From a virus (Duplodnaviria; Caudoviricetes): 64,000 bases of DNA. Below are positions 1 to 60,526 of this stretch, in pieces. The position numbers were made by a program, and so were the translations under genes. Position 1 is the first letter of the stretch. Every line of letters starts with the position of its first letter. Location of the stretch: IMG/VR virus record IMGVR_UViG_3300035670_000009, positions 64,001 through 128,000 of that record, one strand, 5' to 3'. The notes below the pieces were generated by a model. That model saw nothing but the letters and a program-made list of their open reading frames with translations, was not told the origin of the DNA and ran no database searches.

Positions 1-1635
1 GCGAGCGGTCTGCTGCGCGCGTTCCGCATCCCGGAGCCGCCAAACCGCCTCGCCGCGGGCAGTGGCCAGCTTGTCGCGTTCGGCAAGCAGTTCGCCAAGC
101 TTTTCCAGACGTGCCCGGGCCTGGTGGGCATCGGCCTGGGTAACCTGCGACTCGACCAGCTGCGCAGAGAGCGCCTCGTGCCGGTTACGCAGCGCGGCTA
201 GTTGACCGTCTAGCCGGTCGCATTTGGACGACGCCGCCTGAAACAGCGGCGCAATGGCCTGGCGCGCCTTCTGGAACGAGTCGTAGTCCAGGACTGTCTG
301 CGACAACTCGTCTTCCGAAAGCGTCGGAGGAACCACGTTTTGAAGCTTGGCTTCGGCGTCGGCGATTTGATGCTCTCGAGCGTCCAGGTCGCTCTTTCGT
401 TTTTCCCACGCCAGCCGTGTCGCGTGATCTTGTACCGCCTGGCGGTGCGTTACATTCGCTTTAGACTGTTCCGTTTGCAGCCGCCCGAGCAGCTCCTGAC
501 GCTGCGCAATTTGGTCCGCCAGGGCTGCCGTATGCGTGTGACAGGTCGGGCATTCGCTAATACCCGACTCAGTAAACATCTTGAGAAACTCTTCCGTCTC
601 GCGGATGCGCTGCGTAAGGCTGAACAAGTGATTATGTGCTGTTATGACGTCGTCATGCGTAACTACCGGCGGTTCCTCCATTGCAGCCCGGGCGGCCTGC
701 ACCGTTTTGCGGTCGCGTTCCAGCGCGTCACGGGCCGCCGCAACAGCTTTGTAGCTCTGCCAATGGCCCAGAGCCGTCCGAGCAGCCGTGATTGACGCCT
801 CCTGCCCCTGAGAAGCCTCGTCGAGCGCCTGTATGTCGGCCTTGTGCCAGTCGCGTTCCGCCTTCGCCAGCACAAGCTGCTTGGCCAGCGCGGTCGCCTC
901 GCTGTCGATATTGGCCAGCTCGGTTCCGGCCCGTTCCCGGGCTTCCCAGTCTTGGATAATCGCCTGGTCAGCCGTTTGCTGATCGAAGTAGGCGGTCATC
1001 GACGGAAGCTTGCCAAGTTCCGCGTCAATTTCAGCGACCGCAGTCTCGGCCTGGTTGCACTGCTCCTGAAGCTGGCTAGCGGGCGTGAGCACCTCGGGAA
1101 TAGATATCTTTGCCAGATTCTTGCCCAACGCGTCTTGGCACTTGTCGGCCTTGGCTGTGTTAAAGAGCCGCTGGAAAAACTTGTCGGTGTCAGTCTGACT
1201 GTCGTCAATAAAGCTGAAAATCTCGGTCTGGCCGACGATGATGAACCGGCTAATGAACTTTGAGTCCACGCCAAGCAGGTCTTCAATCGCCTTAGTTACG
1301 GCCTTGTCGCCGCGCGCTTTTTCGACGCCGTCCAGCGTGAAGGTAGACGGCTCGTTAGTCGGAATAAGATGCCGCGTAACGCAGGCGATATGGCCGGAGT
1401 GCTCAAACTCCAACGAGGCAAACGACGATTCGCCTTCCTTGGCGTACTGGCTGACGTTGTCCGCCTTGACGCCGTAGTTGGGATTCTCGCCGGTGAGCAG
1501 CCATTTCAGCGCGCCGAAGAGGCTGCTCTTGCCAGAGCCGTTCTCGCCCAGAATGGCCACCAGGCCGCGAGTGAATTCACACACTCGATGGCGATGGTGT
1601 ACCCAATTCCGAACTTCCAATCTCAACAATTGCAC
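1..1635 (-). CDS. sbcC: SbcC/Rad50-like SMC ATPase (partial; runs off the left edge)
   Basis: Not in the ORF track because it has no stop in the window. GTG at 1635 has GAGGAGG upstream; translation begins VQLLRLEVRNWVHH..VAILGENGSGKSSLFGAL (Walker A), then coiled coil and CPTCH zinc hook; adjacent to an SbcD-like nuclease. Confidence 0.9.
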   Translation of the reverse strand, partial: MQLLRLEVRNWVHHRHRVCEFTRGLVAILGENGSGKSSLFGALKWLLTGENPNYGVKADNVSQYAKEGESSFASLEFEHSGHIACVTRHLIPTNEPSTFTLDGVEKARGDKAVTKAIEDLLGVDSKFISRFIIVGQTEIFSFIDDSQTDTDKFFQRLFNTAKADKCQDALGKNLAKISIPEVLTPASQLQEQCNQAETAVAEIDAELGKLPSMTAYFDQQTADQAIIQDWEARERAGTELANIDSEATALAKQLVLAKAERDWHKADIQALDEASQGQEASITAARTALGHWQSYKAVAAARDALERDRKTVQAARAAMEEPPVVTHDDVITAHNHLFSLTQRIRETEEFLKMFTESGISECPTCHTHTAALADQIAQRQELLGRLQTEQSKANVTHRQAVQDHATRLAWEKRKSDLDAREHQIADAEAKLQNVVPPTLSEDELSQTVLDYDSFQKARQAIAPLFQAASSKCDRLDGQLAALRNRHEALSAQLVESQVTQADAHQARARLEKLGELLAERDKLATARGEAVWRLRDAERAQQTAR

Positions 1636-2761
1636 GAGGAGCCTCCTCGGTGAAAAACGCCTTGAAAAACGCCTCTAGCTCCTTACCGGGGTCTTCGGCC
1701 CTGACGAGCCGGTCGGCGAGGCGGTACTCCTCTGAGTCTGCGCCGAGCAGGTCAGATAGCGCCGATAGAAGGTCGTTTCGCGCGCCGTCGCGGTTGTGGT
1801 TTTTGGTCTGCGTCTCTGCATTCTTGTCGGCCAGCGCCTCGCAAAACAGATGCGCCATGTCGTTTACGGCCGTAGTGAGCCGCAGAAACGCGTCGGGGAG
1901 CCGCTTGTCAAACTTGATCCGAACGATCGGTTTGTCGATGCCCAGGCCGCGCTCGGCATTTGAGCACTGCGCTTGCGCCTCGGCGATAGCCGCCGCCAAC
2001 TCACCGGCGCAGAGGCTGTCTAGCAGCTCCTGCTCCTTGACCGTGTAGCTCAAAAACGGACGGGTGCGCAGCTTGTGCGCCTCAAACTCGAAGCCGCCGT
2101 CGTCATTCCGGCTAATCACGAAGAAGTACTTGGTGGGGCACTCGCCCAGGTCCTGCATGCAGATTGAACCAGGCGAGAGCATGGTGACCAGCTGACCTTG
2201 CGCGCCCGCCCCTTCGACCGTGGTCGTCACGTGGAAGTCACCGGCCAGAACAGTGCGAACATAGTGCACGTCGGTGAGGTTGCACTCGGTGCGTCCCAAG
2301 CCCTTCATCAAGTCCTCCCAGACCTGGTGAGTAATCAAGATGTCGGCGTCTTGCGGCACCGCCTTGAAAGCTTCTTGGATCTCGCCGCGGGGCAACCAGT
2401 CCAGACCGTAGACCTGGGCTCCGCGAATTCCGCGAAGCTGGCTGTGAATGTGAATCGGCCAGGAGTGCACGCTGAGCCAAGGCGCGTTGCGGTCGTATTC
2501 GTGATTGCCCTGGATGTAGTAGACCTCGAGTTCCTCGTGCTCCATCTTCGTCAGCCCTTCGCACAGTTTGGCGATCGGCCGGGCGGAGTTGCTCTTCTTC
2601 TCGAGCACGTCGCCGCCCATTATCAAGGGCAACCGGTGCTCGATGCAGTAATCAACGATTTGGGCGAAACTGTAATACGCGTCGCCGTAGATGCTCGGTC
2701 GCGTCGTCCAGGCGCCGTCTTCTAAGTGAAGATCAGCGGTGAACACAAAAAGAGGCGTCAT
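1577..2761 (-). CDS. sbcD: SbcD/Mre11-like metallophosphoesterase nuclease
   Basis: Motifs ADLHL, GGDVLE, GNHEYD, THQ and GDFH; directly upstream of the SbcC-like gene. Confidence 0.9.
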   Translation of the reverse strand: MTPLFVFTADLHLEDGAWTTRPSIYGDAYYSFAQIVDYCIEHRLPLIMGGDVLEKKSNSARPIAKLCEGLTKMEHEELEVYYIQGNHEYDRNAPWLSVHSWPIHIHSQLRGIRGAQVYGLDWLPRGEIQEAFKAVPQDADILITHQVWEDLMKGLGRTECNLTDVHYVRTVLAGDFHVTTTVEGAGAQGQLVTMLSPGSICMQDLGECPTKYFFVISRNDDGGFEFEAHKLRTRPFLSYTVKEQELLDSLCAGELAAAIAEAQAQCSNAERGLGIDKPIVRIKFDKRLPDAFLRLTTAVNDMAHLFCEALADKNAETQTKNHNRDGARNDLLSALSDLLGADSEEYRLADRLVRAEDPGKELEAFFKAFFTEEAPRAIVEIGSSELGTPSPSSV

Positions 2762-2770
2762 TCGCTGTTC

Positions 2771-4161: not shown

Positions 4162-4955
4162 ACCCTGTAAACGTCCTTGATGCGCTGCGGAATCTCAGAC
4201 AACTGCGCGTACTCAGTCGGATTGTCCAGATCGCACAATAGATATCTTTCCAGGTCGGCTGGGTTGTCTAGCCGCTGGTGGACGCCCTCGGGCGAAAACC
4301 GAAACCGCCCGCACCAGACTCGTCCGGCGTTACGCTGGTGACGCCGCAACGCAAGCCGGTAGTCGATCTGATGGATGTGCAGGCAAAGCAGGTCCGGGTG
4401 CGGCGGCTCGTTGGGCGGAACGTTGTAAGCGCCGTGAAAGCCAGCCGCGTAAAACACCGGCAGCCGCGCGACGGCAACCTTTGAGTATTTCGCGCTTTTG
4501 TACCAATGCCGACGGTGGGTCAGGAGCGCCTGCCCCGCCATCAGGTCTGGTTCATTGCGACGGTCGTGAACCACACAGTAGCCAGTAGCCTTGATAAAGG
4601 CAGACTTCGGATAGTCCGCGATCAGCTCGCCCAGCGTCTGATACTCATCGGGCGCAGGCATGAGCAACTCGTCGACCTCCGAAAAGCCAACGGCGCCGAA
4701 GCTCTGGAGCAGAAACTCCTGAAACCGCTCGACAACCCGGGTCAGCCAGTCGTAGTCGAAACTTTCGACGTGCCGCACCGGCACGACGTGAACGCCGTCC
4801 GCTTTGAGCTGCGCAAGATAGTACGACGCGTCGCCCACGCTGTCGTGGTCGAGCACAAACAACTCAGCTTCGGGGGCGTACGTTCGGTAATGCTCAACCC
4901 AAACGGGGAGCAGGTCGATCTCGTCCTGAGCAATCGTGAAAAAGGCGTGGTTCAT
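4146..4955 (-). CDS. GT-A fold glycosyltransferase (GT2-like / GT92-like)
   Basis: Start re-assigned to MNHAFFTIAQDE at 4955; pattern 'LPVWVEHY..LFVLDHDSVG..FSEVDELL..KYSK..GFH' is typical of this family. Confidence 0.7.
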   Translation of the reverse strand: MNHAFFTIAQDEIDLLPVWVEHYRTYAPEAELFVLDHDSVGDASYYLAQLKADGVHVVPVRHVESFDYDWLTRVVERFQEFLLQSFGAVGFSEVDELLMPAPDEYQTLGELIADYPKSAFIKATGYCVVHDRRNEPDLMAGQALLTHRRHWYKSAKYSKVAVARLPVFYAAGFHGAYNVPPNEPPHPDLLCLHIHQIDYRLALRRHQRNAGRVWCGRFRFSPEGVHQRLDNPADLERYLLCDLDNPTEYAQLSEIPQRIKDVYRVCLPR

Positions 4956-5140: not shown

Positions 5141-5149
5141 CCAACCGGC

Positions 5150-6924: not shown

Positions 6925-7194
6925 TCATAGTGAGTCATCGCTGCGTTCGCGAATAGACACAAAACGCCCGCCATCTACATCAAACACGATGCCCGGCACG
7001 CCGCCATGCTGCGCGGCCACTGTATTTGCGATTCGCACCAGAGAATCGTAAATCTTTTTGCCGCGCGTATAACCAACAACGGCTACCAGCACACCGTAAG
7101 GGGAAAGACTAAATACGTCGTTTGAGTTGAAATCTCGCGGCGCAACGTCAGCGTGGTCTTCGATATGACCGCCAAAATCAAAATTGTCAGGCAT
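6925..7194 (-). CDS. hypothetical protein
   Basis: 89-aa ORF overlapping the hldE stop, same strand. Confidence 0.55.
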   Translation of the reverse strand: MPDNFDFGGHIEDHADVAPRDFNSNDVFSLSPYGVLVAVVGYTRGKKIYDSLVRIANTVAAQHGGVPGIVFDVDGGRFVSIRERSDDSL

Positions 7195-8704
7195 GTTTCA
7201 GTTTCTCGAGAATCTGCGTGGTGCTCACGTTGTCCACCATGGGACAACGCCAAATTCGGCCTGGAGGGTCGCGATTTATCATCTCTTCAAGGCCGATGAT
7301 TTCCTCCTCTTTGTACTGCGCGCCTTTGACCAATACGTCTGGGACAAACGCGTCGATCATGCCACGCAGCGCAGGTTGTGCGACAAAATCTTCTTCTTCG
7401 AGCGCAACAACTGCGTCCACGCATCCCAAGCTCGCGAGGACCCGGGAGCGCGTTTCAAAATCCTGCACGGGCCGGTTTGGCCCCTTGAGCAGGCGAACAC
7501 TCATGTCGCTGTTTACAGCCACAATGAGGCGCTTACCTTGTTGTTTTGCCTGTTCGAGCAGCTGCAGATGCCCGCGATGTAAAAGGTCAAAACAACCATT
7601 GGCAAGCACAATCGGCTCATTGATCGTGCGCCACGCAGTAGAAAGAGCCACACCTATAGCAAATGGAACAATCTTCGCTTCCGAAGACGTTTCTACCTGC
7701 TTGGCGTACCGCGCCAGAAACGGCGTGGCTGGGTCCAGCTGCGGATACCCTCGCGCCAGGTATTGCGCTGCCGCAGCGTTACCGGCAGCGATCATCAAAT
7801 GCGCACGCGCTGTATCCGGCGGCGCTTTGACCATTGGCGACAACATCAATTCAGCCACAATTCCGGCAAGAAACGCGTCTCCCGCGCCAACACAGTTGGC
7901 AATCGCGGGGAAACACGATTTTGCCGGTGCCTGATAACTCTTAATCGTCTCGTCCGGTTGGCGCACGGCGTACACAGCACCGTTTCTACCGCCGGTAATA
8001 ATTGCAACCTGCGCCTCGGCAGTCTCGAGCACAGCTTGCACAGTCTCGTGACGATCTGGCGACCAGGTTTTGTCGTTCAGCTCCAGATATTCTTTCGCTT
8101 CCGCGGCGTTCATTTTGACGATGTCGGCGCCCTTGTATGCGTTGAGCAAGGCGGGTTTCGCGCTAACCACCGACAACACGCCATAGTAGCGCGCGGCTTC
8201 GATAATCTTTTGCCCGTAAAACTGGCAATACCCTTTGCCGTAGTCGGCGATAACCAGCGCATTCGCCAACGGAATATGCTGCATATACCGCTCGATGTTG
8301 AAATCGCGCGAAGCGTGTGCAACATACTGATCGGACGTTTCTTCTTCGTCGTAGCGAAATGCGACAATGCCGTGATTATTGACAAACCGCATTTTGGCGG
8401 GCGTAACAAACAGCCCGCTGAATGTCACGTTTTTACAAGACAGGCCAGATTCGTGAAGCAACGCATGCACGGTCTGGCCCGGCGTATCGTCGCCCAGTCG
8501 GCTCATGAGCTTGATTCGCATATTCAGACTGCGCAACAACGCGGCCACCAATCCGGCGCCGCCAAGCGACGCTTGCCGGTCGTCTCCCTTTCCAGTGGCA
8601 ATGACCGCGGCACCTTCAGGATTCGCGTAGCGCGGCCCCGCTTGAATCCAAAGATCAAGCAACAGGTCGCCTAAAACGAGCACTTTCGGTCCGCGGTATC
8701 CCAT
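7187..8704 (-). CDS. hldE: bifunctional heptose-7-phosphate kinase / heptose-1-phosphate adenylyltransferase
   Basis: N-terminal PfkB domain (VLVLGDLLLD, GGAGLVA, GAGDAF); C-terminal cytidylyltransferase-like domain (NGCFDLLHRGH, AVNSDMSVRLLKGPNRP, LVKG, STT). Confidence 0.93.
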   Translation of the reverse strand: MGYRGPKVLVLGDLLLDLWIQAGPRYANPEGAAVIATGKGDDRQASLGGAGLVAALLRSLNMRIKLMSRLGDDTPGQTVHALLHESGLSCKNVTFSGLFVTPAKMRFVNNHGIVAFRYDEEETSDQYVAHASRDFNIERYMQHIPLANALVIADYGKGYCQFYGQKIIEAARYYGVLSVVSAKPALLNAYKGADIVKMNAAEAKEYLELNDKTWSPDRHETVQAVLETAEAQVAIITGGRNGAVYAVRQPDETIKSYQAPAKSCFPAIANCVGAGDAFLAGIVAELMLSPMVKAPPDTARAHLMIAAGNAAAAQYLARGYPQLDPATPFLARYAKQVETSSEAKIVPFAIGVALSTAWRTINEPIVLANGCFDLLHRGHLQLLEQAKQQGKRLIVAVNSDMSVRLLKGPNRPVQDFETRSRVLASLGCVDAVVALEEEDFVAQPALRGMIDAFVPDVLVKGAQYKEEEIIGLEEMINRDPPGRIWRCPMVDNVSTTQILEKLKHA

Positions 8705-9846
8705 CAGAGCACAATCAGCCCGACGGCTGTCTCCGGGAGCGGGAAAAGATAAACGCCAAGCGGACTAAACTGCCTGGGCGTATCAAGCCGCATCACCACG
8801 TTTTCATTGGCGTCGCGCAGTTGGGCGGTCACGTAAGGACCCGTCTTGGAAGTGCGAGCGTCCAGCGTAACGGAATATGGACTTCCGTCAACACTAAGCG
8901 TGACCGAAACTGAGTTGCCAGCGGGGTAGTTGCCAGGTCGATCGAAAACATCCTGGATCGCCGAGATGTGATTCTGCCGATACATTTCGAACAGCACAGG
9001 TTTCGTAAAACGCCCAAAGCGCGCGTCATACAACTGCTCCATTTCGGCGCCAGCGCCCCAGCATGCGGGTGCGTAGACCCTTGCTGCGGCCATTAGATAC
9101 GGCGGCACGTTAACGTAGTCCTCGGGCTGCGCCTTGGCCAGCAAAAACGTCTGCTCGGGGAGACAGACAAACTCGCCGGTCTCCGTGAGAATTTTCATCT
9201 CGCCGCTGTCCGTAGAAGGCAGCGCGATCGCTCCCAGCTGCGGCCCCATACCCGCGCCGTCAGGATATTCGCTCTGCCAATCGAGCAGCTCCGTAACGGG
9301 GCTGCCGTGCGGCGAAAACTTGGCCGGAGAGAAGACCGCCTGCAGGTGCGTGTTCTGCACCAGCGCCGGAGCTTTCTTGCCGGGCGTTGGCAGAGGTTGG
9401 GGCGCAGGGGCAGTCGTGACGGGCCACTGCGTCGGCTCAGCTGCCTGCACAGCAGCCTCGGCCACAAGCTGGTTAAACAGATCCTGGCTGGAGACTTCGG
9501 GCTCGAGCTGCACCACGTTCACAAACTGACGCAGCGCCTCCAGGATAATGGCGTCCCGACGATCAGGCGGAGTGTTCGCATACTCAAAGATATCTTTGAG
9601 CGCGTCGCTGCGAGTCGCCCGTGTCAGCGAAAAATTCAGGCCCGAGAAATCAAAACGGGCCAGCTGCTCAGCCGCTGTGACCAGTTTCGCTCGCGCCATC
9701 AGCGGTTGTTTGGCTTCGCTGCCTGCCAGCCGAAGAACCTCTAGCAATGCTGCAGCGAGCATCAGGCGGTGGCTGTCCTTAGACTTGGGCGCCGCCACCA
9801 TAAGAAAATCATCCAAAACGTTACTTGCGACGCATTCGTCGGACAT
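8704..9846 (-). CDS. hypothetical protein
   Basis: Start re-assigned to MSDECV at 9846; its stop overlaps the hldE start. Confidence 0.65.
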   Translation of the reverse strand: MSDECVASNVLDDFLMVAAPKSKDSHRLMLAAALLEVLRLAGSEAKQPLMARAKLVTAAEQLARFDFSGLNFSLTRATRSDALKDIFEYANTPPDRRDAIILEALRQFVNVVQLEPEVSSQDLFNQLVAEAAVQAAEPTQWPVTTAPAPQPLPTPGKKAPALVQNTHLQAVFSPAKFSPHGSPVTELLDWQSEYPDGAGMGPQLGAIALPSTDSGEMKILTETGEFVCLPEQTFLLAKAQPEDYVNVPPYLMAAARVYAPACWGAGAEMEQLYDARFGRFTKPVLFEMYRQNHISAIQDVFDRPGNYPAGNSVSVTLSVDGSPYSVTLDARTSKTGPYVTAQLRDANENVVMRLDTPRQFSPLGVYLFPLPETAVGLIVL

Positions 9847-10960
9847 CGTCTGCAGTCCCATCGTAAACGGCATCACAGGCAGACAATAAAGCGGGGAAGG
9901 TGTGCCGATACTCCCTGCCGATCGTAATTTGAATCGCCTCGTCGCTTGGTAGCGACCGATCAGTCTGGTACGCAGCCAGCACGTTGTTGAAAAGCCGAGT
10001 GCTTTGCGCGCCGTCATCGGCGGCGATAAATATGCCGCCAGGCGAGCCCGCCATCTGCCGAACCTCTGCGGCAAAAACCAGCATGTCGACGTAACTAGCT
10101 GCGCCCAGCGCGGCCCCCAACGTCGCGGCGTGCGTGGCGGGAAACAAATGGTGCATGCTGTCTCCCAATGTCAAATGAACCGTAGCGGGCCGCTGTAATT
10201 CGTATGCGCGAGCGAGCACGCTCGCCGACCGATTGGACGAGAGCGGAAAGCTCCAACGCCCCAGCGCCTCGCCGTAACCCATGCCGCTCGCGGCCGCGCG
10301 AAGCGCCGCGACATTAAGCGGCGCGAGCTCGCGAAGCCGGTCGTCGTGTGAAGAACGACCGCCTAAAATGGCGCGCTCAAAGTCCCGCATTGCCGCAGCG
10401 CTGGAGAGCGCCACGCCGGTGATATAGCCCTTTTCAAGCATTGTGTTGACGAGGGGCCCGACGTTTTCGGCAATAACCGCGTGCCCCAGAAAAAGCACGA
10501 CGGGCTTGTTGGCACTTCGTGCCGCGTGAATCAACCGCGCGCGCGCAATGTCGTCTTTGCCGGGCGGCACGTCGGCAATAGTCGGAATTGGCGCCGCGCG
10601 AGGCAGCGCGTATTGCACCTGAAACGTGTCAAGGTGCTGGTGCGAGCTGACGATGTCGGTTGCCAGCGTCAACGGCGGAGCAGCCGCCGGATCTTCTGCT
10701 GGCTGCATGGGCCCAGTACCGCAAAACAACCACTCGGCCCGCGCAAAACCCAGCTTCACAACGCGCAGCAGAACGGGCATCCCAAAAGAATGCTCGCCAG
10801 CCAACGCGTCACGAAAACGATATTTTTGCACCCCGACGCGTTTGCCGAATGCTGAAATGTTGCCGCCAAACGCGAACTCACACAAGTAATTCATCCGCAG
10901 TCGAATCGCGTTTGTCCCCTCCAGCTTGTTCGGGCGATAAGGTGCTCGACGCCTCACCAT
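9821..10960 (-). CDS. Cro/CI-type HTH fused to a deoxyhypusine-synthase-like (DHS-like) domain
   Basis: N-terminal 'GGNISAFGKRVGV..AEWLFCGTGPM' resembles a repressor HTH. C-terminal 'PVVLFLGHAVI..GYITGVA..DFERA..MGYGEALG..SVLARAYELQRPATVHLTLGDSMHH' resembles an uncharacterised DHS-like family. Confidence 0.6.
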   Translation of the reverse strand: MVRRRAPYRPNKLEGTNAIRLRMNYLCEFAFGGNISAFGKRVGVQKYRFRDALAGEHSFGMPVLLRVVKLGFARAEWLFCGTGPMQPAEDPAAAPPLTLATDIVSSHQHLDTFQVQYALPRAAPIPTIADVPPGKDDIARARLIHAARSANKPVVLFLGHAVIAENVGPLVNTMLEKGYITGVALSSAAAMRDFERAILGGRSSHDDRLRELAPLNVAALRAAASGMGYGEALGRWSFPLSSNRSASVLARAYELQRPATVHLTLGDSMHHLFPATHAATLGAALGAASYVDMLVFAAEVRQMAGSPGGIFIAADDGAQSTRLFNNVLAAYQTDRSLPSDEAIQITIGREYRHTFPALLSACDAVYDGTADDVRRMRRK

Positions 10961-12233: not shown

Positions 12234-12304
12234 GTGCCCAGCCGGGAATCGAACCCGGGGCCTCCGACTTACAATGTCGGACTCTGCCACTGAGCTACTG
12301 GGCG
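12234..12304 (-). tRNA. tRNA-Thr(UGU)-like; C1:A72 mismatch, no encoded CCA
   Basis: CGCCCAG-TA-GCTC-AGTGGCA-GAGT-CCGAC-ATTGTAA-GTCGG-AGGCC-CCGGG-TTCGATT-CCCGG-CTGGGCA-C folds into a full cloverleaf. Confidence 0.85.
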
Positions 12305-13521: not shown

Positions 13522-13783
13522 GACGCAATGTTCTCCATGTGTCTGCGCCAGCGAGTGGCGCTGTGGTTGTTGTAGTCCGGCGTAGCGGTGCCGGAAACGC
13601 GCGGATAGATATCAATCGGCGAGGCACAAAACGGACGTGTCATCGATTCTGCAAGAAAAAACACGCCGCAAATCCTTGAAGGCGCTCAAGTTGCGGCGCA
13701 ACCCTTACAAAAATGTTGTCCGATTTGACCTGACCTCGTTGACTCACTTCGTGAGTCATAAAGGGTTAAGACTGGGAAGGGAA

Positions 13784-13835: not shown

Positions 13836-14780
13836 TCAAGACAATCTGCTGTGTCCCCAGTATTTCTCGATGCCTTTGGACAGCGACAAGAATTCTTTGG
13901 TGTACCCTGCTGCTCGCAGTCGAGTTAGGCTAGCTTGCGTGCGAAACTGATACTGGTTGCGAAGTTCTTTTGGCATCGGAATCCAAGCGCACTCAGCGCC
14001 GAATTTGTTGCGCTGCTGCACTGAAATAGCGTTGAAGGCCAACTCATCGAATAAATCGTAAAACGATTGCGCCTGACCAGTTCCAACGTTGTAGATCCCC
14101 GAGGGCGCCTCTTTCAGTGCCCACAGGACGACTTGTACAACGTCGTCGATATAGACAAAATCCCGAAAGATATCTTTGCTCCCTGCGAAAAGCGTTGGTT
14201 TTTCGCCGTTGTTTACTTGCTGGATCAAGTGGTACGCCACGCTGGCTAGCCGACCTTTGTGTTCTTCGCCTGGACCGTACACATTAAAGTACCGCAGGCC
14301 GACCACTCTGTTGACCGCCTGTGTCAATCGACCGCGGACGTACTCGTCAAACGCCCACTTCGAGATAGCGTAAGGCGTTGTCGGGTGTTCGTATTCAGGC
14401 GATTCGATGCACTGGGGTCTACCAGGACCATAAACCGCAGCGCTCGAAGCGTAGATCAGCGGACAATTTGACGCCTGCGCCAGGTCGAACAGATCCACCG
14501 AAAAACTGTAATTGGCCAGCATGATGTTGCGACCGTTTGACTCGGTGGTGTCCGAGTTTGCGCCCTGGTGAATAATCGCACTAAGCTCGGCTTCGCGCGT
14601 TTTACCTTTTCCCAGGTCGCGATAGTCGCAATAGTAGTAAAACTTACTACCGGCGAGGTTTTGCATCTTGCGCCCATCGGTCAAATCGTCGACGCAAATA
14701 ATGTCGTCGCGACCTTGATCGTTGAGGGCCTTCAAGATATTTGAGCCAATAAAGCCAGCAGCTCCGGTGAGTAGGATCAT
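13836..14780 (-). CDS. hldD: ADP-L-glycero-D-manno-heptose 6-epimerase
   Basis: MILLTGAAGFIGSNILKALN..DDLTDGRK, HQGANSDTTE, YASSAAVYG, YAISK, LRYFNVYGPGEEHKGRLASV, RDFVYIDDV. Confidence 0.93.
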   Translation of the reverse strand: MILLTGAAGFIGSNILKALNDQGRDDIICVDDLTDGRKMQNLAGSKFYYYCDYRDLGKGKTREAELSAIIHQGANSDTTESNGRNIMLANYSFSVDLFDLAQASNCPLIYASSAAVYGPGRPQCIESPEYEHPTTPYAISKWAFDEYVRGRLTQAVNRVVGLRYFNVYGPGEEHKGRLASVAYHLIQQVNNGEKPTLFAGSKDIFRDFVYIDDVVQVVLWALKEAPSGIYNVGTGQAQSFYDLFDELAFNAISVQQRNKFGAECAWIPMPKELRNQYQFRTQASLTRLRAAGYTKEFLSLSKGIEKYWGHSRLS

Positions 14781-16992: not shown

Positions 16993-17105
16993 AAAACCTC
17001 CTAGTGGCTCGTGTAAACGGGTTCGGCGCGGGTGTAGTCTTTGGCGCAGGCCGCGTACACACGGGCCCGGCCAAAGATATCTATCGCGGACGGCGTCCTC
17101 AAGAC

Positions 17106-17687
17106 TCAGTCGAGAACGCGCTGAATGCGCTGCGCTTCGTCAAGCGTGCGCTGAAAGATGACGCGATACGTGCCGCAGGGCAACTGCCAGTCTCCGTGTT
17201 CGGGATGAACCACGGTGTTGGGCTGCGACAGCTTGAAAATGGGACCAGCCATCAGCACGGCCTCTTCAAGCGCCGCGCGCTCTTCGCTGTAATCAAGCCG
17301 CCAGCTCATGATCTGACCGGAACGGGGCATCTTGACGCCGTGCTTGGCGTAAACGTGCTTTGCGACAGCTTCGTCGGTCTGTACGGGGAGCCACATCTCG
17401 ACTCCGTCGGCGCTTGCCAGGCAGTGCCGTGAGCCCTTGGTATTGCCCGGAGCCAGCTGAAGAACCGGCTGGTCGACACGAGCGTAGATATGCGCAGGGA
17501 TCTGGACATCGTCGCTGCCCAGAAACTGGATTACGACGTCGCCCTGGCGGACCGCGTCGCCGACGCTGGCGGCATCTGAAAAAATCTGCAGGCCGTCATT
17601 CTTGACGGCTTCAACAGCCCTGGCGATATCGCTGAGGGTTTTGGTAATAGCTGTAGTCTTCTTCTTGGACAGAGTTGCAGTGGCCAT
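17106..17687 (-). CDS. conserved partner of DUF6745-like proteins (HPEH motif)
   Basis: Start re-assigned to MATATL; RQGDV..LAPGNTKGSRH..HPEHGDWQLPCGTYRV..QR. Confidence 0.65.
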   Translation of the reverse strand: MATATLSKKKTTAITKTLSDIARAVEAVKNDGLQIFSDAASVGDAVRQGDVVIQFLGSDDVQIPAHIYARVDQPVLQLAPGNTKGSRHCLASADGVEMWLPVQTDEAVAKHVYAKHGVKMPRSGQIMSWRLDYSEERAALEEAVLMAGPIFKLSQPNTVVHPEHGDWQLPCGTYRVIFQRTLDEAQRIQRVLD

Positions 17688-17712
17688 GGGTAGGCTTTCC
17701 TTGTAAGAGTGC

Positions 17713-19221
17713 TCAGGACGCGCCAAGCAGGCGCACGGGGTAGTTCATTAGTTCCACGACATCCGTTGACGCACCAGCGTGTAGCCATCGCTGGCCTTCT
17801 TCGCATGTGTTGATATCTTCAGGCACAGCTAGAAAATATTGCCGCGCGGTTGATCGACAAGCTAACACCAGCTTGCGGCGTTTGAACGGCGTGTTTTCTC
17901 TGACTACTCGCCCGTTAGCCCATCCGGTTGTTTCGAGCGTGTCATCAATTTCAACCAGCGCTTCAATCGTGTTGTCCACGTCATTTTCGCGACTGTCGAC
18001 GATTCTTGCGCCGATTTCTTCGAGGTATCGACTCCATCCGTAAACTTCAATCGCGATTCGTTTAACTTCTTCGTTTTGCTCGCGCTGGATATCGGCAAGT
18101 GTCAACGTTTCAGGCTTGTCGACGATCTTCTCGCCGAGCATTCCCAACTGGTGTCCGTCGACCCAATACTGTTTTGCGCCGTCTGGGTAGACGACCGCGG
18201 GGCCTTCGTCGTTGTGTAGCTCGCCGTCTTGATTGCAGTGAACAGTCGGCCGCCCCAGTAACACCAGCGCCTGTGTTCTGAACGTCATCACCATAGACGC
18301 GGCATGGACTAGTTCGCGCTGCCACGTAAAGTCGGGGCGCGTAAATTGCATTCCAGTGCACAGCACTTCGGCGTCAATGTAGTTTGTGCCCCAAGAACTA
18401 TCGATCCCCGAAGCGTCAACTCTGCAGTGCGTTGCGGTGCGGGCGCGGCTGCTGTTGGGAATGTCGGCGAGGCGCGCTGACGCTTTGGTGCCGCTGTCAT
18501 CGCGCTGCCAGAAATTGCCTAACGTAACTACATCGCCAAACCGCTGACTGCGCTGGTGTTTGGATTGCGTAACATTGAAAACATTGCTGTTTTCCAGGTT
18601 GCGCAAAATAACATTGCGCGACACGGGTGGCAGGTCACCAAACGCGTCGGCAAAAAGTGCGCGATGTTTTTCAAGTTCGTTTTCGTTTTCGCGGCGTCGT
18701 CGCCGCCGCATTGCCGATGTTTGCACGTCGTCGCTGTTTTCGCTAAACACTGCCGCAATGGCGCCGCGGATTGGCTTTTCGAGCGTCTTTTCCCAGGCTT
18801 CTGCGAGGGCTGAACTAGACCGATACCAGTGCGGGTCGTTTCGGGTGTGAAGGACGGCTTCTCGACGCAAATTGTTGATAAACCCGTCGTTGATGCCGTA
18901 GGCGGCGCACATTTCTTTGGCGGCAATCTTGGAAAGATAACCGCGCAAAACGCCCTCGGCAATGCGAAACGCCAGTGGCGAATGAACAATGTGCAACTTG
19001 GGCGGACTCAGCTTGTATGTCTTCCAGACCCAGGTCGCATTCTTGTTCTTCTTTTTGCTTTTGTGTTTGAAAACGCGGCTGACCTTCGTTCGGCGATAAA
19101 CCGGATCAAGAATTTTCTGAACGCGCTCTGCGCTTTCAGGAACGGCGCCCGCCATAGTGCGAGCCCAGCGGCTTACAACATCAACAATCAGCTTTTTGTT
19201 ACGTTTAGCCAGTCGGGGCAT
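17713..19221 (-). CDS. DUF6745-like domain protein
   Basis: C-terminal LHNDEGPAVVYPDG..YWVDG..IQREQNEEVKRIAIEVYGWSRYL..LACRSTARQYFLAVP. Confidence 0.7.
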   Translation of the reverse strand: MPRLAKRNKKLIVDVVSRWARTMAGAVPESAERVQKILDPVYRRTKVSRVFKHKSKKKNKNATWVWKTYKLSPPKLHIVHSPLAFRIAEGVLRGYLSKIAAKEMCAAYGINDGFINNLRREAVLHTRNDPHWYRSSSALAEAWEKTLEKPIRGAIAAVFSENSDDVQTSAMRRRRRRENENELEKHRALFADAFGDLPPVSRNVILRNLENSNVFNVTQSKHQRSQRFGDVVTLGNFWQRDDSGTKASARLADIPNSSRARTATHCRVDASGIDSSWGTNYIDAEVLCTGMQFTRPDFTWQRELVHAASMVMTFRTQALVLLGRPTVHCNQDGELHNDEGPAVVYPDGAKQYWVDGHQLGMLGEKIVDKPETLTLADIQREQNEEVKRIAIEVYGWSRYLEEIGARIVDSRENDVDNTIEALVEIDDTLETTGWANGRVVRENTPFKRRKLVLACRSTARQYFLAVPEDINTCEEGQRWLHAGASTDVVELMNYPVRLLGAS

Positions 19222-23434: not shown

Positions 23435-23496
23435 GGTTAGCGCGCGCGACTACACAGTCGCGGGGCGACGATTCTCCTGGCTGGATAGATATCTAT

Positions 23497-29584: not shown

Positions 29585-29787
29585 CTTCTAGTATACTCTG
29601 CCAGGCTGCGGGCTCTAGTTCAGTCATCTTGACCGAGACTGGAGAGAAGCCGGAACACGCCGTAAAAAAGTCTTGTCGCACAGTGCAGGCCGTGAGCGGC
29701 GATAATGTTTACGCCGTCTTCTAGCCATTCCAGTTCGGCAATTTCTTCGTGTTCCTGACCGCTGTCACGGGATTGATACTGGGACAT

Positions 29788-31719: not shown

Positions 31720-31731
31720 ATAGATATCTAT

Positions 31732-33908: not shown

Positions 33909-33918
33909 GACTCTCCTT

Positions 33919-36249: not shown

Positions 36250-36599
36250 TATTCCTCGTTTAGGTCGTCGTTGTCGTACCAATCGTCGTCGTCTTCGTCG
36301 TCGTCTTCGTCGTAGTCGTCGGTGCCGCTGTCCCAGTCCTGCTCATCATCGTCGTCATCGTCGTAGGTTTCTTCGTCGTCGTTTTCGTCATCATCATCGT
36401 CGTCGAAGTGCCACGTCGTTGACGGCGCGCGCGTAAAATCGTCGTCATCGTCGTCATCGTCCTCTTCGGATTCGTGAACAAACTGCCACTCTTCCTCGAG
36501 AAAGTCGTCGTCCAGCCCGTCGTCAAAGCGCGCATAAAGCTTTGCGAGTGCGTTGAACTGCTCAAAAGAAACGACGTCGTTATCCAAATTCGCGCGCAT
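36249..36599 (-). CDS. extremely acidic low-complexity protein
   Basis: Long D/E runs encoded by GAC/GAT/GAA repeats; start re-assigned to MRANLD. Confidence 0.65.
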   Translation of the reverse strand: MRANLDNDVVSFEQFNALAKLYARFDDGLDDDFLEEEWQFVHESEEDDDDDDDDFTRAPSTTWHFDDDDDDENDDEETYDDDDDDEQDWDSGTDDYDEDDDEDDDDWYDNDDLNEE

Positions 36600-40663: not shown

Positions 40664-40919
40664 GCGCGGGCTCCTGGTCGGGTGTGACAGCGCGGCCCGG
40701 TAACGCAAAGATATCTTTGCGCGGGCCAACGCTGTCTGGGTCGATAGTCTGCGAAGAGAGGCCCATCCGCTCAGGGACAGGCGGCGCAGACTGCTGTTCG
40801 ATTTCTGCGTCGAACATCGCGAGATAGTGTTGATATTCTTGCCAGTCAAAATAAGCCTGGCGTTCTTCTTCAGATGGTAGGCACACGTCTACGTCAGGTA
40901 GCCGGTCGTTCCAGCCCAT
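40635..40919 (-). CDS. hypothetical protein
   Basis: Start re-assigned to MGWNDR. Confidence 0.55.
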   Translation of the reverse strand: MGWNDRLPDVDVCLPSEEERQAYFDWQEYQHYLAMFDAEIEQQSAPPVPERMGLSSQTIDPDSVGPRKDIFALPGRAVTPDQEPAHARQDQDRN

Positions 40920-44730: not shown

Positions 44731-45083
44731 GGAAACTTGACCTTTAGCAGCGGAATCGTCGACGTCTTGCGATAGTATAACGTAATTGCCTTGATTTTTG
44801 GGTCGTTACGTTTTTGGCGTAGATAGTCAATTAACGCCGCGAGCCCGGCAGGATTTTCGGTCCGCATTGTTTCCATCAAGGCAAGCGTGGCGTCAATACA
44901 GTCAAATACAAGGTGCGCACTGCCTCCGCACCGGCAAGTACTTTTGGCGGCGTTTTCCAGATATGCGGCTTTGCATTGCGCGACCTGTTCTTCGACGGGC
45001 GCAAACGCTGAGTTAGCGTTGAAAAACTCAGCGTCGAAAAGCATTTTCACAAAGTCGTCGCGCGTCATGATGACCACGCTCAT
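44727..45083 (-). CDS. hypothetical protein
   Basis: Start re-assigned to MSVVIM (ATGA overlap with the GT9 stop). Confidence 0.6.
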   Translation of the reverse strand: MSVVIMTRDDFVKMLFDAEFFNANSAFAPVEEQVAQCKAAYLENAAKSTCRCGGSAHLVFDCIDATLALMETMRTENPAGLAALIDYLRQKRNDPKIKAITLYYRKTSTIPLLKVKFP

Positions 45084-46987
45084 CGGCCGCCTCCCGTGGC
45101 CGCTTGCCAGGCCGGAGTTCCAAAATGCGGCTGACTCACGCCGCGGCGGACGACGCTCGAGGTGTGAATGTATTGCTTCGAACGATTCCAACCTACGATG
45201 TCGTATCCAGCCTGATAGAGCTGTTCGCCAATTGTGTAGTCGCCGCCATTGTGCGTGAGCGCTGCGTCTGGAATGTCCGCTGCGCGCATTGCCGCTGTTT
45301 TTAGGCAGAAGAACCCGCCCGCTACGAACACCGCGTGATCGCCGTTGGGAGCGGGCTTTTTGTTTTTCATGCGGAACGGTCGCCCCTGGTACCAGGGTCG
45401 CGAACGATAAAGCTGCTGTTGCGCCGTTGACAGACGAATTGTCATGTCGGCGCCAAATAGCCCCGCTTCAGGATTGGCGAGAATGGCCTGCGCCAGGAGC
45501 GTGAGCCATTGCTGGTTCCGGTCTGCAATCGAATCATCGTCGAACCATATTAGGTAGTTCGTTTCAATCGGCAGCGCTGTGTCGTGGAACATTTCCCGCA
45601 TTACCGGATACTTCAGGGCGTTTTCCCTGTGCCGGTAGTGCTTGCTGACAACCCCGTGGTCGACAAGGCGATCGAGTACGGCCGCCGTTTCGTCGCACAG
45701 TTCATTAGAACCGACGCGCAGGTCGATGCGACCAGGCGGGCATGTGGAAACAATCGAGTTCAGGCAACGCATGTGCAGCGAGTGGTATTGCGCGGGCCCG
45801 TAAAACAACACGCAGACCGTGAACTTGCCGCCTATCACCGGATCTCGATAGATATCTTTGTCCGGCGCTGCCGTCGGAATAGCGGTATTTGGCGTTCCCG
45901 GATCAGCGCGCTCGAATCGGGCGGCCGGGGCTAGTACAGGCGCGGCGACCTGCGAAACAGTACTCCCCGCGTCTGATAAACGGTACCGTACGATCTCGTC
46001 GAGCGGCTTAATGGGCGGCAGCGTCCGGTCTTCGTAATAGCTCATCACAGCCTCGACAACGTGCTGGGGGGTGATCATGTCCAGGCATTTTGGAACCGCC
46101 TGGCCCGGCTTCACGATAGGGTACTTGCAAAGCGACGAATCGCCGTTCAGCGGCAATACCTTGTTTTTCCAGCAGCCGTGGGCCTGGCAGCAGTCCAGCA
46201 GCCCGATCGTGTGTAGATAACGGTGCGGCACCGTTAGCCGCTGGGCCGTCTCAGGGCCTCCCAGACCGGCGTTTTCGCGGACATAGGCCTCCCACCACCA
46301 GGCCTCCCTGCCGCCCGCCAGAACGACGCAGGGGCGCTGTAACGCCGCGGCCAGGTGCATCGCTGCCGTGACGCCGCAAATGACCCCGTCAGCGTGGTAA
46401 ATCAGCCGAAGCCAGTCCCGCAGCCCCGTACGGCCGACCAGGTTTAGCGCCCCGGCGATTTCGGGGTGCCAGTGTCCGCGCTCCGTGCCGCCGATCTGGA
46501 CGCACGGGACGCCCAGGGCGCTTAACGCGCTAATCGTCTCCTGCCACGCCGCCTGGCCCCAGACCTTGGCGGTGAAGTCCGACTTACCTCCGGACAGAAA
46601 CACCCAGTAGCGGCCCTCTACGAGCCGCCGGGATCGTTCCTCTTCCGACAGGTGCAGGTCTGGGTAAGGCAAGGTGAGCGGGATTCGCACGCGAGCCTGG
46701 ACCTCGAAATCCCTGTGAAAATAGGCAAGGAAATGCACCGTTTCGTGGTTCTGGTCGCGAAGGCCTTTGCCGTAGGTGAGCTTGATGTGCTCGACCCCCT
46801 TTTGGCCGCGTAGCTCACGCGCGCTGACGATGTAGGGATTGTTCTCCCACAGCGCGGCGGCGTTCGTGTCGACGCCGATTTGAAATGCGCCGGGGTGCGT
46901 CAGCGCAATGTCGCGCACCAAAGCGGTGAGCACTGCCGTATCGCCCGGCGCTCGTTTGTGCACGAGAATGAGGCGGCGAGCCTGCAC
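45080..46987 (-). CDS. GT9 (ADP-heptose heptosyltransferase-like) domain fused to a GT2-like domain
   Basis: N-terminal RAPGD..AKVW..VQIGG..NLVGRTGLR..ADGVICGVTAAMHLAAALQRPCVVL; C-terminal TVCVLFYG..YLIWFDDDS..FVAGGFF..HNGGD. Confidence 0.82.
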   Translation of the reverse strand: MQARRLILVHKRAPGDTAVLTALVRDIALTHPGAFQIGVDTNAAALWENNPYIVSARELRGQKGVEHIKLTYGKGLRDQNHETVHFLAYFHRDFEVQARVRIPLTLPYPDLHLSEEERSRRLVEGRYWVFLSGGKSDFTAKVWGQAAWQETISALSALGVPCVQIGGTERGHWHPEIAGALNLVGRTGLRDWLRLIYHADGVICGVTAAMHLAAALQRPCVVLAGGREAWWWEAYVRENAGLGGPETAQRLTVPHRYLHTIGLLDCCQAHGCWKNKVLPLNGDSSLCKYPIVKPGQAVPKCLDMITPQHVVEAVMSYYEDRTLPPIKPLDEIVRYRLSDAGSTVSQVAAPVLAPAARFERADPGTPNTAIPTAAPDKDIYRDPVIGGKFTVCVLFYGPAQYHSLHMRCLNSIVSTCPPGRIDLRVGSNELCDETAAVLDRLVDHGVVSKHYRHRENALKYPVMREMFHDTALPIETNYLIWFDDDSIADRNQQWLTLLAQAILANPEAGLFGADMTIRLSTAQQQLYRSRPWYQGRPFRMKNKKPAPNGDHAVFVAGGFFCLKTAAMRAADIPDAALTHNGGDYTIGEQLYQAGYDIVGWNRSKQYIHTSSVVRRGVSQPHFGTPAWQAATGGGR

Positions 46988-55627: not shown

Positions 55628-55630
55628 GGT

Positions 55631-56569: not shown

Positions 56570-56570
56570 T

Positions 56571-57353
56571 TCACACCACCTTTTTACCGACCGTGTCTAT
56601 TTTTATAGCGCCATCCTGCGTGTAAACGCGCAGAACGGTATCTACGGCCCCGTGATTGGCTGCAGTGATATTGAAATTACCGTACTCGTCTGGTCCGCAA
56701 GGCACGCCATCCACTGTAAACGTTTGGAGAAACGTCCGCGGCACAAAGCGGTTCAGCTCGTCGCAGACGTAACGGCTAAAGAGCGGCTCGCCAATGATAT
56801 CTATCCGAATTGTGGTGGCGTCTTCTTTGCGAAGCACCACGCCACGGCCGCCAACCAGCCACACGTCGCCGGTAAGTAACGGCCCGTCGATGGTTTTAAG
56901 CGCCCGCACGCCCGGTTCCTTGGCTGGAATTACAACGCTAGAAACGAACTCTGTCGCTGTTGCTGAAAACGTGTGTGTTTCTGTTGGCCAGCCGGAAAAC
57001 CGGGCCAACCCAAACGGCGCGGCGAGAAGCACGCCCGCCGGACGACCGAATGCGTCAGAAAGCGCTAGAGCGCCGTCAGCGGGCGGCGCGAGCGGGTTGA
57101 AGCTCGCTGTAGCGCGATTGCGATCGGCGGCGTCGCCCACGCTGATTGTGACGAGTTGCGCCGTCACGGAAATGGCCGAAATGTACGCCTGGCGTTCGCC
57201 GCCAATGGTGTAAAGTGTCGCGTCGAAAAAAGTGTCTCGACCAATGTCCAGACGTCGTTCGGCCGACAAGAGAGTCGCCCGATCCGAAAACGGATAACGC
57301 GAATCAGCTTGTTCGTCCCGAAACTGGGGATAAAGGATACGCGCGCCGCTCAT
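56571..57353 (-). CDS. putative baseplate/tail structural protein (YPF/L family)
   Basis: N-terminal FRDEQADSRYPF; C-terminal GPDEYGNFNI. Confidence 0.6.
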   Translation of the reverse strand: MSGARILYPQFRDEQADSRYPFSDRATLLSAERRLDIGRDTFFDATLYTIGGERQAYISAISVTAQLVTISVGDAADRNRATASFNPLAPPADGALALSDAFGRPAGVLLAAPFGLARFSGWPTETHTFSATATEFVSSVVIPAKEPGVRALKTIDGPLLTGDVWLVGGRGVVLRKEDATTIRIDIIGEPLFSRYVCDELNRFVPRTFLQTFTVDGVPCGPDEYGNFNITAANHGAVDTVLRVYTQDGAIKIDTVGKKVV

Positions 57354-58996: not shown

Positions 58997-58999
58997 GTG

Positions 59000-60526
59000 T
59001 TAGCAGCTCCGGACCGTGCCGCCGTCAGTGTTACAGTTAAGAGCCGCAGAAGTCGTAACAGGCGCCGCGAGGGCTATGGGTTCGCAACCGGGTAAAAATG
59101 GGCTGGCGTTAGTCGCGCCAGTCAATGTAGCCGTCACCGAGTAAGGATAGTTCGCCGGGTTGAAACGCAGGCGAAATTTGACATACGCAGAGCTGCCAAG
59201 ATCTACCGGCGGTAACGGCGCGTTAAAGGTCGGATATGTCCCCTGTAGCGCATACTCGACGTTGCTGTGGCCTGGGGCGCTCAGAAACGTGTATCCGCAC
59301 TCAATCACTGCCGTCGCGCCCGCCGGAAACGTACTGAAGGTGACCGCTAGCGCGCCATTTTCAGCGCACTGATGGCACTGATTGCAGTACATAATGACTA
59401 CGTCGAGCAACGGGCAGTTTTGCGGCGTCAAAAGCACGCGCAATGGTTTTTGTAAACGGCATTCGCGCTGCTCTATCCAACGATCGATATTGCTCTCGTG
59501 CAACAACTTGATGTCATGCGTGCGCGCGCCGACGCTCGAATACTTTCTCGCGACCTGATTCATATAGAGCGCGGTGTCTACATAATCCGGGCAATCACAA
59601 CAGGGCGGGCAGTTACTGCCGATCGCCAGCGTCGCCGACCCGCCGGTAAACACCGGTACGGCGCGGCCGCTTATGTTAAGCGTGGTTGGTTGTCGAATCC
59701 AAATACAGTCAGGGCCAGCTATTACAAGGTCGCCGTATTCATTGGGCGTGGCGCCATTCAACCGATAAATTGGCTGCGCCGGGTCATCAGGGCAATCTTC
59801 ATACTTGCCTGCGCCTGCGCCAGGTTCGGCTGTCAAGGTGATGTTTGTGTTTTGCCGTCGACCGCGCACAGTTGCGTCAGCGCTTTCGAGAATCATGTTG
59901 TTTCCGGCAACAAACGTCGCGCCTGTGCGGGTCACGGTGCCTATTTCTGCGTCTTCTGACACAACGGTGAGCGACCGCAAGCGGCGCGGCATTTTGTAAA
60001 CCGCGCGTTCGTCGAGCACAGCGTTTATGGGCGCCAGGTGTATCGGCCAATCTTTCGGCGCAATTTCAAAGGCGGGCGGCCAGGTCTTGTGAATGACCAG
60101 CCTGCAAACAGCGTCGTTGCCGATCCACTCGTAAACGTCGTAATCGGCGCCCCAGCTGCGCTTGATAAACCGGCGGTATTCTGGGTCACCACCTACGGGA
60201 ACCGGCTGCGTAGAATCAAACACCGTGTTTTCGTCCGCGTCGACAATCAAGATGTCAGCCGCGTGAATCGGCGCGGGCGCCCAGACTGGTGCTATCGCTG
60301 GCTCACAGCCAACGCCGTAGAGCCATTTGATGCGCAAAGGGTGTTTGCGGATCGACTCGGCTGCGCGATAAAAACCCGGGTCGTCGTAGGCCAGATAAAA
60401 ATCGGCCAATAGATATCTAACGTCGTCCGACGGCGCGACGAGCGGGTAGTCCAAACCGCTTTGGGGTTGAACGACGCCGATACCTCCGCGGCCGCCTGGC
60501 GTGATGGTCGGATCTGCACAGCTCAT
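59000..60526 (-). CDS. putative baseplate/tail structural protein
   Basis: GLDYPL..LLADFYL; LNGATPNEYGDL; CPPCCDC. Confidence 0.6.
   Translation of the reverse strand: MSCADPTITPGGRGGIGVVQPQSGLDYPLVAPSDDVRYLLADFYLAYDDPGFYRAAESIRKHPLRIKWLYGVGCEPAIAPVWAPAPIHAADILIVDADENTVFDSTQPVPVGGDPEYRRFIKRSWGADYDVYEWIGNDAVCRLVIHKTWPPAFEIAPKDWPIHLAPINAVLDERAVYKMPRRLRSLTVVSEDAEIGTVTRTGATFVAGNNMILESADATVRGRRQNTNITLTAEPGAGAGKYEDCPDDPAQPIYRLNGATPNEYGDLVIAGPDCIWIRQPTTLNISGRAVPVFTGGSATLAIGSNCPPCCDCPDYVDTALYMNQVARKYSSVGARTHDIKLLHESNIDRWIEQRECRLQKPLRVLLTPQNCPLLDVVIMYCNQCHQCAENGALAVTFSTFPAGATAVIECGYTFLSAPGHSNVEYALQGTYPTFNAPLPPVDLGSSAYVKFRLRFNPANYPYSVTATLTGATNASPFLPGCEPIALAAPVTTSAALNCNTDGGTVRSC

Follow-up and report, generated by a model that had tools for sequence, protein, structure and literature searches.

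Dispersed copies of a 12-bp palindrome in a family of ~200-kb phages and their possible role as docking sites of a symmetric DNA-binding protein

The genome of a phage held in IMG/VR as record IMGVR_UViG_3300035670_000009 (203,910 bp, 57.7% GC, with a 73-bp terminal overlap; G000 below) is dotted with copies of a 12-bp palindrome, AWAGATATCTWT. The window, that is, the whole stretch of 64,000 nucleotides that was analysed, corresponds to 64,001–128,000 of this record, and positions given here are those of the window unless marked as genome positions. With moderate confidence, the palindromes can be regarded as operator-like docking sites of one sequence-specific, two-fold symmetric, predicted DNA-binding protein (the reader) that would co-evolve with its sites. 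The copies greatly exceed expectation, are selected at the DNA level and, in a sister lineage, have been exchanged for another palindrome, at several of the same places. To our knowledge, palindromes that are dispersed and sharply conserved are on record for a few phage groups, and none of them has been assigned a function.

Abundance, selection and spacing of the palindrome

An earlier note, made from the sequence of the window alone, listed 11 exact copies. All of them were found where it placed them, against 0.01 expected from dinucleotide shuffles, and the count in the whole genome is likewise not near expectation, with 39 exact copies in 203,910 bp. G000 also has 42 octamers and 49 copies of the looser word WWWGATATCWWW. 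Every AGATATCT octamer of the window (12 of 12) is A/T-flanked, as claimed. The word is sharply defined: the 39 exact copies are accompanied by 10 with one mismatch and 7 with two, and the mismatches lie nearly all in the flanks, not in GATATC.

Genome-wide, 26 exact copies are genic and 13 intergenic, the intergenic share being 33% vs. 9% of the sequence. Our own gene calls place 8 copies of the window within genes, with all three frames read, and 3 between genes, in agreement with the note. The genic copies of the genome encode K-D-I-Y/F 15 times, K-I-S 7 times and R-Y-L 4 times, and are located anywhere along the gene, at relative positions of 0.01–0.93 of its length. It had been proposed that selection acts on DNA rather than on protein, and this was borne out by two shuffles, one of synonymous codons inside genes, with all proteins and the codon usage preserved, and one of codon order: either leaves about 0.1 genic copies vs. 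26 observed. The sites make use of rare codons, namely AGA (3% of Arg codons), ATA (6% of Ile codons) and CTA (6% of Leu codons). Fourteen of the 20 G000 sites that can be aligned to the relative G001 are identical, although the surrounding ±200 bp are only ~75% identical; other sites are lineage-specific, an x-D-I/V-Y peptide having already been in place where they arose. One site in the gene for RNA polymerase beta/beta-prime gives RWAKISL in G000, where G001, G002, G007, G009 and G011 have RWSKITL; the same segment is RWSKVTL in G008 and RWAKITL in G003. Compared with the five RWSKITL genomes, G000 pays for the site with two changed residues and a rare ATA codon. Chance, codon usage or a conserved K-D-I-Y/F peptide as the source of the pattern is essentially excluded, with next to no probability left to it. 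Some genic sites do lie on peptides that relatives keep as x-D-I/V-Y, but the explanation is refuted by the shuffles that preserve protein and codon usage, and it does not account for three frames in use and 13 intergenic copies.

Among the exact copies of the window, four are conserved in G001: ATAGATATCTTT at 1100–1111, in place within an SbcC-like gene (K-I-S on the minus strand), the genic copy at 4238–4249 (R-Y-L), AAAGATATCTTT at 9586–9597 (genic, K-D-I-F), and the copy at 14166–14177 within an NAD-dependent epimerase (HldD-like) gene (K-D-I-F). The copy at 27696–27707, in a dATP/dGTP diphosphohydrolase-like gene, has sites at matching places in G001 and G002, and that at 36964–36975, in a gene for an 879-aa protein (K-D-I-Y), is conserved in both these genomes. 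A further copy (45848–45859, K-D-I-Y) belongs to a GT9 heptosyltransferase-like gene, and the one at 40707–40718 is the core of an 18-bp palindrome (40704–40721). The latter palindrome and another at 31717–31734 read as the note had described them. The near-matches it reported at 13605, 15793, 34594, 56793 and 60409 are also real. Four are variants of WWWGATATCWWW, namely ATAGATATCAAT (13605–13616, one half-site of each type), ATTGATATCTTT (34594–34605), AATGATATCTAT (56793–56804) and ATAGATATCTAA (60409–60420); the one at 15793 has one core mismatch.

The idea of an even tiling of the genome stands in part: the copies are more even than random, but they do not form a lattice, since the gaps are between 0.6 and 20 kb long, and one gene contains two sites at a distance of 610 bp. 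For the exact copies of the whole genome, the coefficient of variation (CV) of the spacing is 0.65 vs. 0.96 for random placement (p 0.002). Over genome positions 1–112,000 (n = 25, including all 11 window copies), the CV is 0.34, and 0 of 20,000 simulations were as even. The loose word WWWGATATCWWW in G000, G001, G002 and G009 gives a CV of 0.58–0.66, with p ≤ 0.004 in each.

Half-sites and the exchanged word in relatives

At positions 2 and 11 of the 39 exact copies, the half-site combinations AA:AT:TT occur as 11:19:9, and independence predicts 10.8:19.4:8.8 (chi-square p 0.89). Because the half-sites vary independently, the reader is likely to be a two-fold symmetric protein, not a hairpin, and each half-site would be read independently by the predicted dimer. 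A role of the palindrome as a nucleic-acid structure, be it a DNA cruciform, an RNA hairpin, a terminator or an RNA-processing site, is very improbable and essentially excluded too. The sequence is self-complementary, and the 18-mer of G009 could make a 7-bp stem. However, positions 2 and 11 must pair in such a structure, yet they are T/T or A/A in 19 of the 39 copies, as independent halves predict, and no covariation keeping the arms complementary was seen at these positions. The remaining stem of 2–3 AT base pairs around a 4-nt loop is too weak, and no T-tract follows.

IMG/VR contains a large family of ~200-kb environmental relatives of G000, and the search for the motif in related contigs that the note had called for found it dense in close relatives and conserved in place. 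The exact word is dense only there, with 26 copies over the 154 kb of G001 (TerL identity 91%) and 16 over the 119 kb of G002 (82%); the fragments L005, L006 and L009 carry it as well. G009 (79%) has almost no G000 word and instead possesses 31 TGATATCA cores with the consensus CTCATTGATATCAATGAG, at equal density and with an equal intergenic share. The half-site is AWAGAT in the G000 lineage and ATTGAT plus flank in the sister lineage, and both types are mixed in G028 and G005. The exchange took place in situ. At genome position 192105, AAAGATATCTTT of G000–G002 corresponds to TTTGATATCAAA in G009, within a non-coding block that is 79–88% identical. Similarly, the sites past the stops of the genes at genome 81106–81726 and 31646–31999 (genome 81073 and 31638) are of type A in G000 and of type B in G009. 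Six of the 11 G009 sites alignable to G000–G002 have an in-register site there, and about 2 more have one with a one-base shift. Orthologous places carry the exchanged word, and one trans-acting reader co-evolving with the sites is therefore indicated.

A non-coding stretch at genome ~191,300–192,100 of G000 (L145:11300–12100) is 79–88% identical in G000, G001, G002 and G009, well above the identity of the neighbouring coding sequence. It begins right past a palindrome copy and lies upstream of a tRNA gene (L145:11222–11293). It has no Rfam match at the gathering score and may be a structured RNA.

On the TerL tree, the number of sites per 100 kb is 20–26 in G000, G031, G001, G002 and G009, 18–23 in G032 and G033, and 7–15 in G028, G030 and G034. 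The sister clade of the G028 group (G005, G006, G007, G010, G011, G016 and G025) shows 2–7, and most other records show 0–1, with an expectation of 0.2–0.9; G018 and G019 are intermediate at 2–4. In G011 and G007, octamer counts still exceed those of codon-aware shuffles ~7-fold, and partial GATATC words are present at orthologous places. Site density thus seems to build up or decay gradually.

The earlier note had read the copies as an array of sites for a dimeric protein. The shuffles, the conservation in place, the independent half-sites and the switch of the word in place all support that reading indirectly, but no ParB-type protein, which it had also brought to mind, is encoded.

Promoters, candidate readers and competing explanations

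Intergenic copies often directly follow a stop codon: TGA and then ATAGATATCTAT after both the AAA ATPase gene (23497–24990) and the TerL gene (29749–31719, among the few genes on the plus strand). Behind the first of these copies (ATAGATATCTAT, 23485–23496) come a conserved hairpin, whose loop is TGTGTAG, and then the next start codon; the second (31720–31731) is the core of the perfect 18-bp palindrome at 31717–31734. The third intergenic copy of the window (17073–17084) lies 22 nt past the stop of the gene at 17106–17726 and is followed by a leader hairpin. At its place, G009 has ATTGATATCAAA, and G011 and G028 have a partial GATATC word over the stop codon. Downstream of intergenic copies there is usually a leader hairpin, followed by a Shine-Dalgarno sequence and then by a start codon. 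The leader hairpins at 23435–23484 and 16993–17072 (minus strand) separate the palindrome from the next start and have a GTGTA/TGTGTAG loop. Relatives without the palindrome still have the one past the AAA ATPase gene, with compensating stems. Because hairpins are also found in palindrome-free relatives, the palindrome appears to be an addition to an older layout.

An oriented promoter-like element, CTAAAT-N14-GGGCATAT, is present family-wide, with 6 examples in G000, 4 in G009 and 3 each in G007 and G011. It fits sigma-70 geometry with 17-bp spacing if CATATT is the −10 element. The G000 examples are all on the minus strand and outside the window (genome 12318, 17833, 18475, 27605, 38686 and 151070), and the element often has a T-run and GCTATCAG in front. 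The 12-mer starts 15–16 nt upstream of CTAAAT in one of the six promoters of G000 and two of the four of G009, with its centre near −45, which leaves 3–4 bp between the palindrome and the −35 box downstream of it. In G009 a third copy is found at −36, and in G000, G001 and G002 one copy lies at +111/112. The number of upstream coincidences expected by chance is ~0.1. Judged by their position in the sequence, these promoter-adjacent copies point to a role of the palindrome in transcription. Two other candidate promoter words were discarded: GATAACAA, considered as a promoter equivalent in G007 and G011, is not conserved at orthologous places, and CTAAATA as a stand-alone late-promoter word found no support. 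In the motif-free G012 (TerL 58%), the asymmetric word GTAAATAAGAAC occurs in ~10 copies and may be a promoter of the G012 lineage.

It is unlikely that the sites are themselves middle or late promoters of the phage's own sigma-less multisubunit RNA polymerase, spaced for sustained transcription or DNA intake. The word has been described as an AT-only 12-mer in a 58% GC genome, the copies favour intergenic sequence (33% vs. 9%), and several of them lie 14–25 nt upstream of start codons or just ahead of leader hairpins. Nearly all genes are on one strand (212 of 217 on the minus strand according to a simple coding-potential caller), and the gene for the putative 1456-aa RNA polymerase is conserved at 76–85% across relatives. 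A number of ~40–50 copies also resembles that of the late promoters of large phages such as T4. In contrast to phage RNA polymerase promoters, however, the sites have perfect dyad symmetry, independent half-sites and no orientation bias among the intergenic copies, and the genic copies are uniform over the gene length. The motif is absent from G003, G007 and G008, whose polymerase is 76–79% identical and in which no similarly abundant replacement motif is seen, and a separate oriented promoter exists across the family.

The search for the reader employed family searches, phyletic profiling and Pfam and PHROG scans. In a six-frame search of the whole 203,910-bp genome, ParB_N (PF02195) gave no match at E ≤ 1, and control genomes matched. 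Dam-type (PF02086) and N6/N4 (PF01555) methyltransferases were not matched either, with matches in the controls; C5 methylases were not searched for. Pfam and PHROG scans of ~70 proteins revealed metabolic and structural matches only. The note had put forward three candidates. Those at 26313–27032 and 9821–10960 show no DNA-binding signal, and the one at 27076–27465 held up in part: its family has winged-helix DNA-binding signatures, but it tracks the motif poorly. This small basic protein (129 aa, minus strand, P0160) is the only recognisable DNA-binding candidate, and a weak one. It has no Pfam match itself; of its 26 relatives, 4 match Arg_repressor (best E 4e-7) and 4 match HTH_Tnp_Tc3_2, and a comparison of the family profile with PDB sequences gave only E 0.26 to ArgR. 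P0160 is also present in the motif-free G003 and G026, and G000, G001 and G002 have different recognition helices in it despite the identical word. A conserved site is located ~230–300 nt upstream of its gene; in the window this is the copy at 27696–27707, at a distance of ~230 nt.

The presence of another protein, of 193 aa (P0038, A2 family; 17106–17726, minus strand), tracks the motif best across relatives. It is a lead only, and this correlation is confounded by phylogeny. All records that are complete enough and have 2 or more sites per 100 kb encode it, and it is absent from G003, G004, G008 and G012–G015. Its neighbour, a 502-aa DUF6745 protein (17713–19221, minus strand), has an equal presence pattern. 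The matches of the A2 protein in the AlphaFold DB are uncharacterised proteins only. Three further candidates were rejected. The P0001 family (33198–34007) has no DNA-binding match and is also found in a 20-kb locus without sites, a 433-aa protein (genome 182483–183784) looks HAD-hydrolase-like, and a plus-strand 143-aa open reading frame is probably not a gene. P0001, encoded on the minus strand, is specific to this phage family and has an MGxxF start and invariant AYNGT and WLVGG motifs; its real start probably gives 236 aa. In its AF2 model (pLDDT 89), a beta domain is joined to a long alpha-hairpin that resembles the hairpin of membrane-fusion proteins.

Several of the results weigh against a phage-encoded protein docking at operator-like sites. 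No reader emerged from any of the approaches named above, and HTH_3, HTH_17, HU and RHH gave no match in the genome, with control genomes matching. The A2 protein occurs in the site-free G026 and G029 too, and its fold has no match in the PDB (Foldseek E > 0.1; best VIA-align Z 4.2), so that no DNA-binding fold is recognised. Apart from the sugar-pathway enzymes, the proteins that only motif-rich genomes encode mostly lack a family. Two thirds of the sites are inside genes, far from any promoter. Finally, motif-rich records are found in two or more separate clades of the TerL tree and tend to have a higher GC content (58–62% in G000, G001, G002, G009 and G031, most motif-free records having 52–56%; the exception is G028 with 53%). 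Such a patchy distribution on the tree fits a reader supplied by the host, for instance a nucleoid, recombination, defence or regulatory protein whose sites the phage collects, a change of the word then being a change of host. The absence of the tested common DNA-binding families from 204 kb and the poor tracking of the motif by the sole winged-helix candidate go in the same direction. Nevertheless, the graded densities and the mixed half-sites of G028 and G005 have the appearance of a co-evolution that proceeded gradually in the phage lineage itself, and a host reader is distinctly unlikely.

A site-specific enzyme is also rather unlikely as the reader. It could be a nickase leaving localised single-strand breaks in the virion DNA, as known from T5 or Pseudomonas phage tf, a restriction-like nuclease starting recombination-dependent replication, or a DNA-modifying enzyme marking the genome. 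The word is as sharply defined as a restriction site, being built around the EcoRV hexamer GATATC, and its spacing is fairly even; putative SbcCD-type end-processing proteins are annotated at 1–1635 by the earlier note. Moreover, the A2 and DUF6745 proteins, with invariant HPEHGD and GSRH and a pI of 6.4, look more like an enzyme pair than a regulator. But neither a Dam-type nor an N6/N4 methyltransferase was found, nor did a candidate nuclease come to light. The nick sites known from phages lack symmetry and concern one strand, and cutting both strands of a palindrome would sever the genome. A regulator fits better with the fixed position beside the −35 box. Somewhat unlikely as well is a hitherto undescribed marking of the genome in these uncultured phages by a reader of unknown fold, perhaps the A2 and DUF6745 pair (17106–19221), that would dock or act at the evenly spaced palindromes and partition the 204-kb chromosome, transcribed in one direction, into units of ~4–5 kb. 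Such units might serve for insulation, as topological barriers or for the handling of polymerases, and the reader and its ~40 sites would switch specificity together between lineages.

In the docking-site interpretation that we favour, about a third of the copies would act from between genes, where they follow stops, precede leader hairpins and occasionally sit upstream of a −35 box. We infer that a reader bound at these intergenic copies would turn transcription on or off. The other copies would have been written into genes by point mutation, leaving no long site-free stretch of a genome transcribed in one direction. They may be roadblocks, insulators or loading points for a genome-wide action, in the manner of KorB on RK2.

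Other phage features, known systems and significance

No close cultured relative of G000 was detected by blastn, the best TerL match being Salmonella phage Arash with 30% identity. A TerL scan of 185,579 species genomes found neither a relative nor a host. In addition to the dATP/dGTP diphosphohydrolase N-terminal domain protein (27620–28186, minus strand), the window encodes a T4 endonuclease V-type pyrimidine dimer glycosylase (35797–36282, minus strand) and a tRNA (12234–12304, minus strand; Rfam 51 bits). PurZ is absent from the genome, while control genomes matched in the same search; without it there is no sign of a 2-aminoadenine genome. A sugar pathway comprises an HldE-like kinase/adenylyltransferase, two NAD-dependent epimerases and a GT9 heptosyltransferase (7187–8704, 13836–14780 and 45080–46987; genome 7367–8341), and most of it is restricted to the motif-rich relatives G001 and G009. 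CCTAGG is strongly avoided in all genomes examined, e.g., G000, G007, G008 and G011 (4–9 copies vs. 55–63 expected), and AGGCCT is avoided in G007 and G008, which hints at restriction pressure from hosts.

Among 16 related records searched, an integrase was found only in G002; a called gene in the locus L185 also has the domain. These tyrosine integrases of two motif-rich relatives (G002:104649–105137 and L185:16311–17222) are inserted beside the diphosphohydrolase-like gene and have no counterpart in G000, and that of L185 is accompanied by an HTH_17 excisionase-like gene. Some members of the ~200-kb phage family may therefore be temperate. Lysogeny as a general explanation of the palindromes was rejected, because the integrase is too rare.

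The kind of element described here has precedents. KorB of the IncP plasmid RK2 is a global regulator of the ParB superfamily whose OB operators are located at promoters, ~100–200 bp off, or at remote or genic positions. The G000 palindromes share with OB a single sharp word of 12–13 bp about every 5 kb, some copies being directly upstream of a −35 box and others remote. In contrast, G000 is without a ParB N-terminal domain protein, its word is another one, and the 39–49 copies on 204 kb are mostly genic. The stoperators of Cluster A mycobacteriophages, bound by the L5 gp71 repressor, are also short words in ~20–30 copies across a phage genome. They are asymmetric, oriented with transcription and intergenic, they stop transcription genome-wide and they serve lysogeny, whereas the G000 sites are symmetric and two thirds of them are genic, in a family with the rare integrase noted above. 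The localised single-strand interruptions of T5, phiKMV and tf resemble the palindromes in that a specific short word occurs at several to ~14 places of the genome, but these words are asymmetric and mark nicks in one strand.

The earlier note knew of no described phage system with this motif, and this is correct for the exact word; systems of this kind, however, are described. According to Cresawn et al. (2015, PMC4351075), Cluster O mycobacteriophages contain the 17-bp dyad repeat TGTTCGG-N3-CCGAACA in more than 30 invariant copies, genic and intergenic, with function and reader unknown. G000 likewise has more than 30 near-invariant inverted-repeat copies throughout its genome, between and inside genes. 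The Cluster O phages are, however, unrelated 70-kb siphoviruses of Mycobacterium, their word is different, and its architecture is 7 + 3 + 7, whereas the G000 palindrome is uninterrupted. For the G000 phage, the present analysis established the statistics of the spacing, the exchange of the word in place and the promoter-adjacent geometry. HIP1 (GCGATCGC), the highly iterated palindrome of cyanobacteria, is another high-copy palindrome kept by selection on DNA; its function is described as unresolved after decades (PMC5861425). It is cellular, far denser (up to one per gene), GC-rich and only 8 bp long.

The new observation is that, in two genomes, 3–4 bp separate the palindrome from the −35 box of a conserved promoter downstream of it. 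The comparative evidence is unusually clean, since ~40 sites are selected strongly enough to alter mostly kept residues of an RNA polymerase. The question of the reader is directly testable with a few expressed proteins and oligonucleotides. In general, these data suggest that large phage genomes transcribed in one direction may use a genome-wide DNA-bound factor outside the DNA-binding families searched here.

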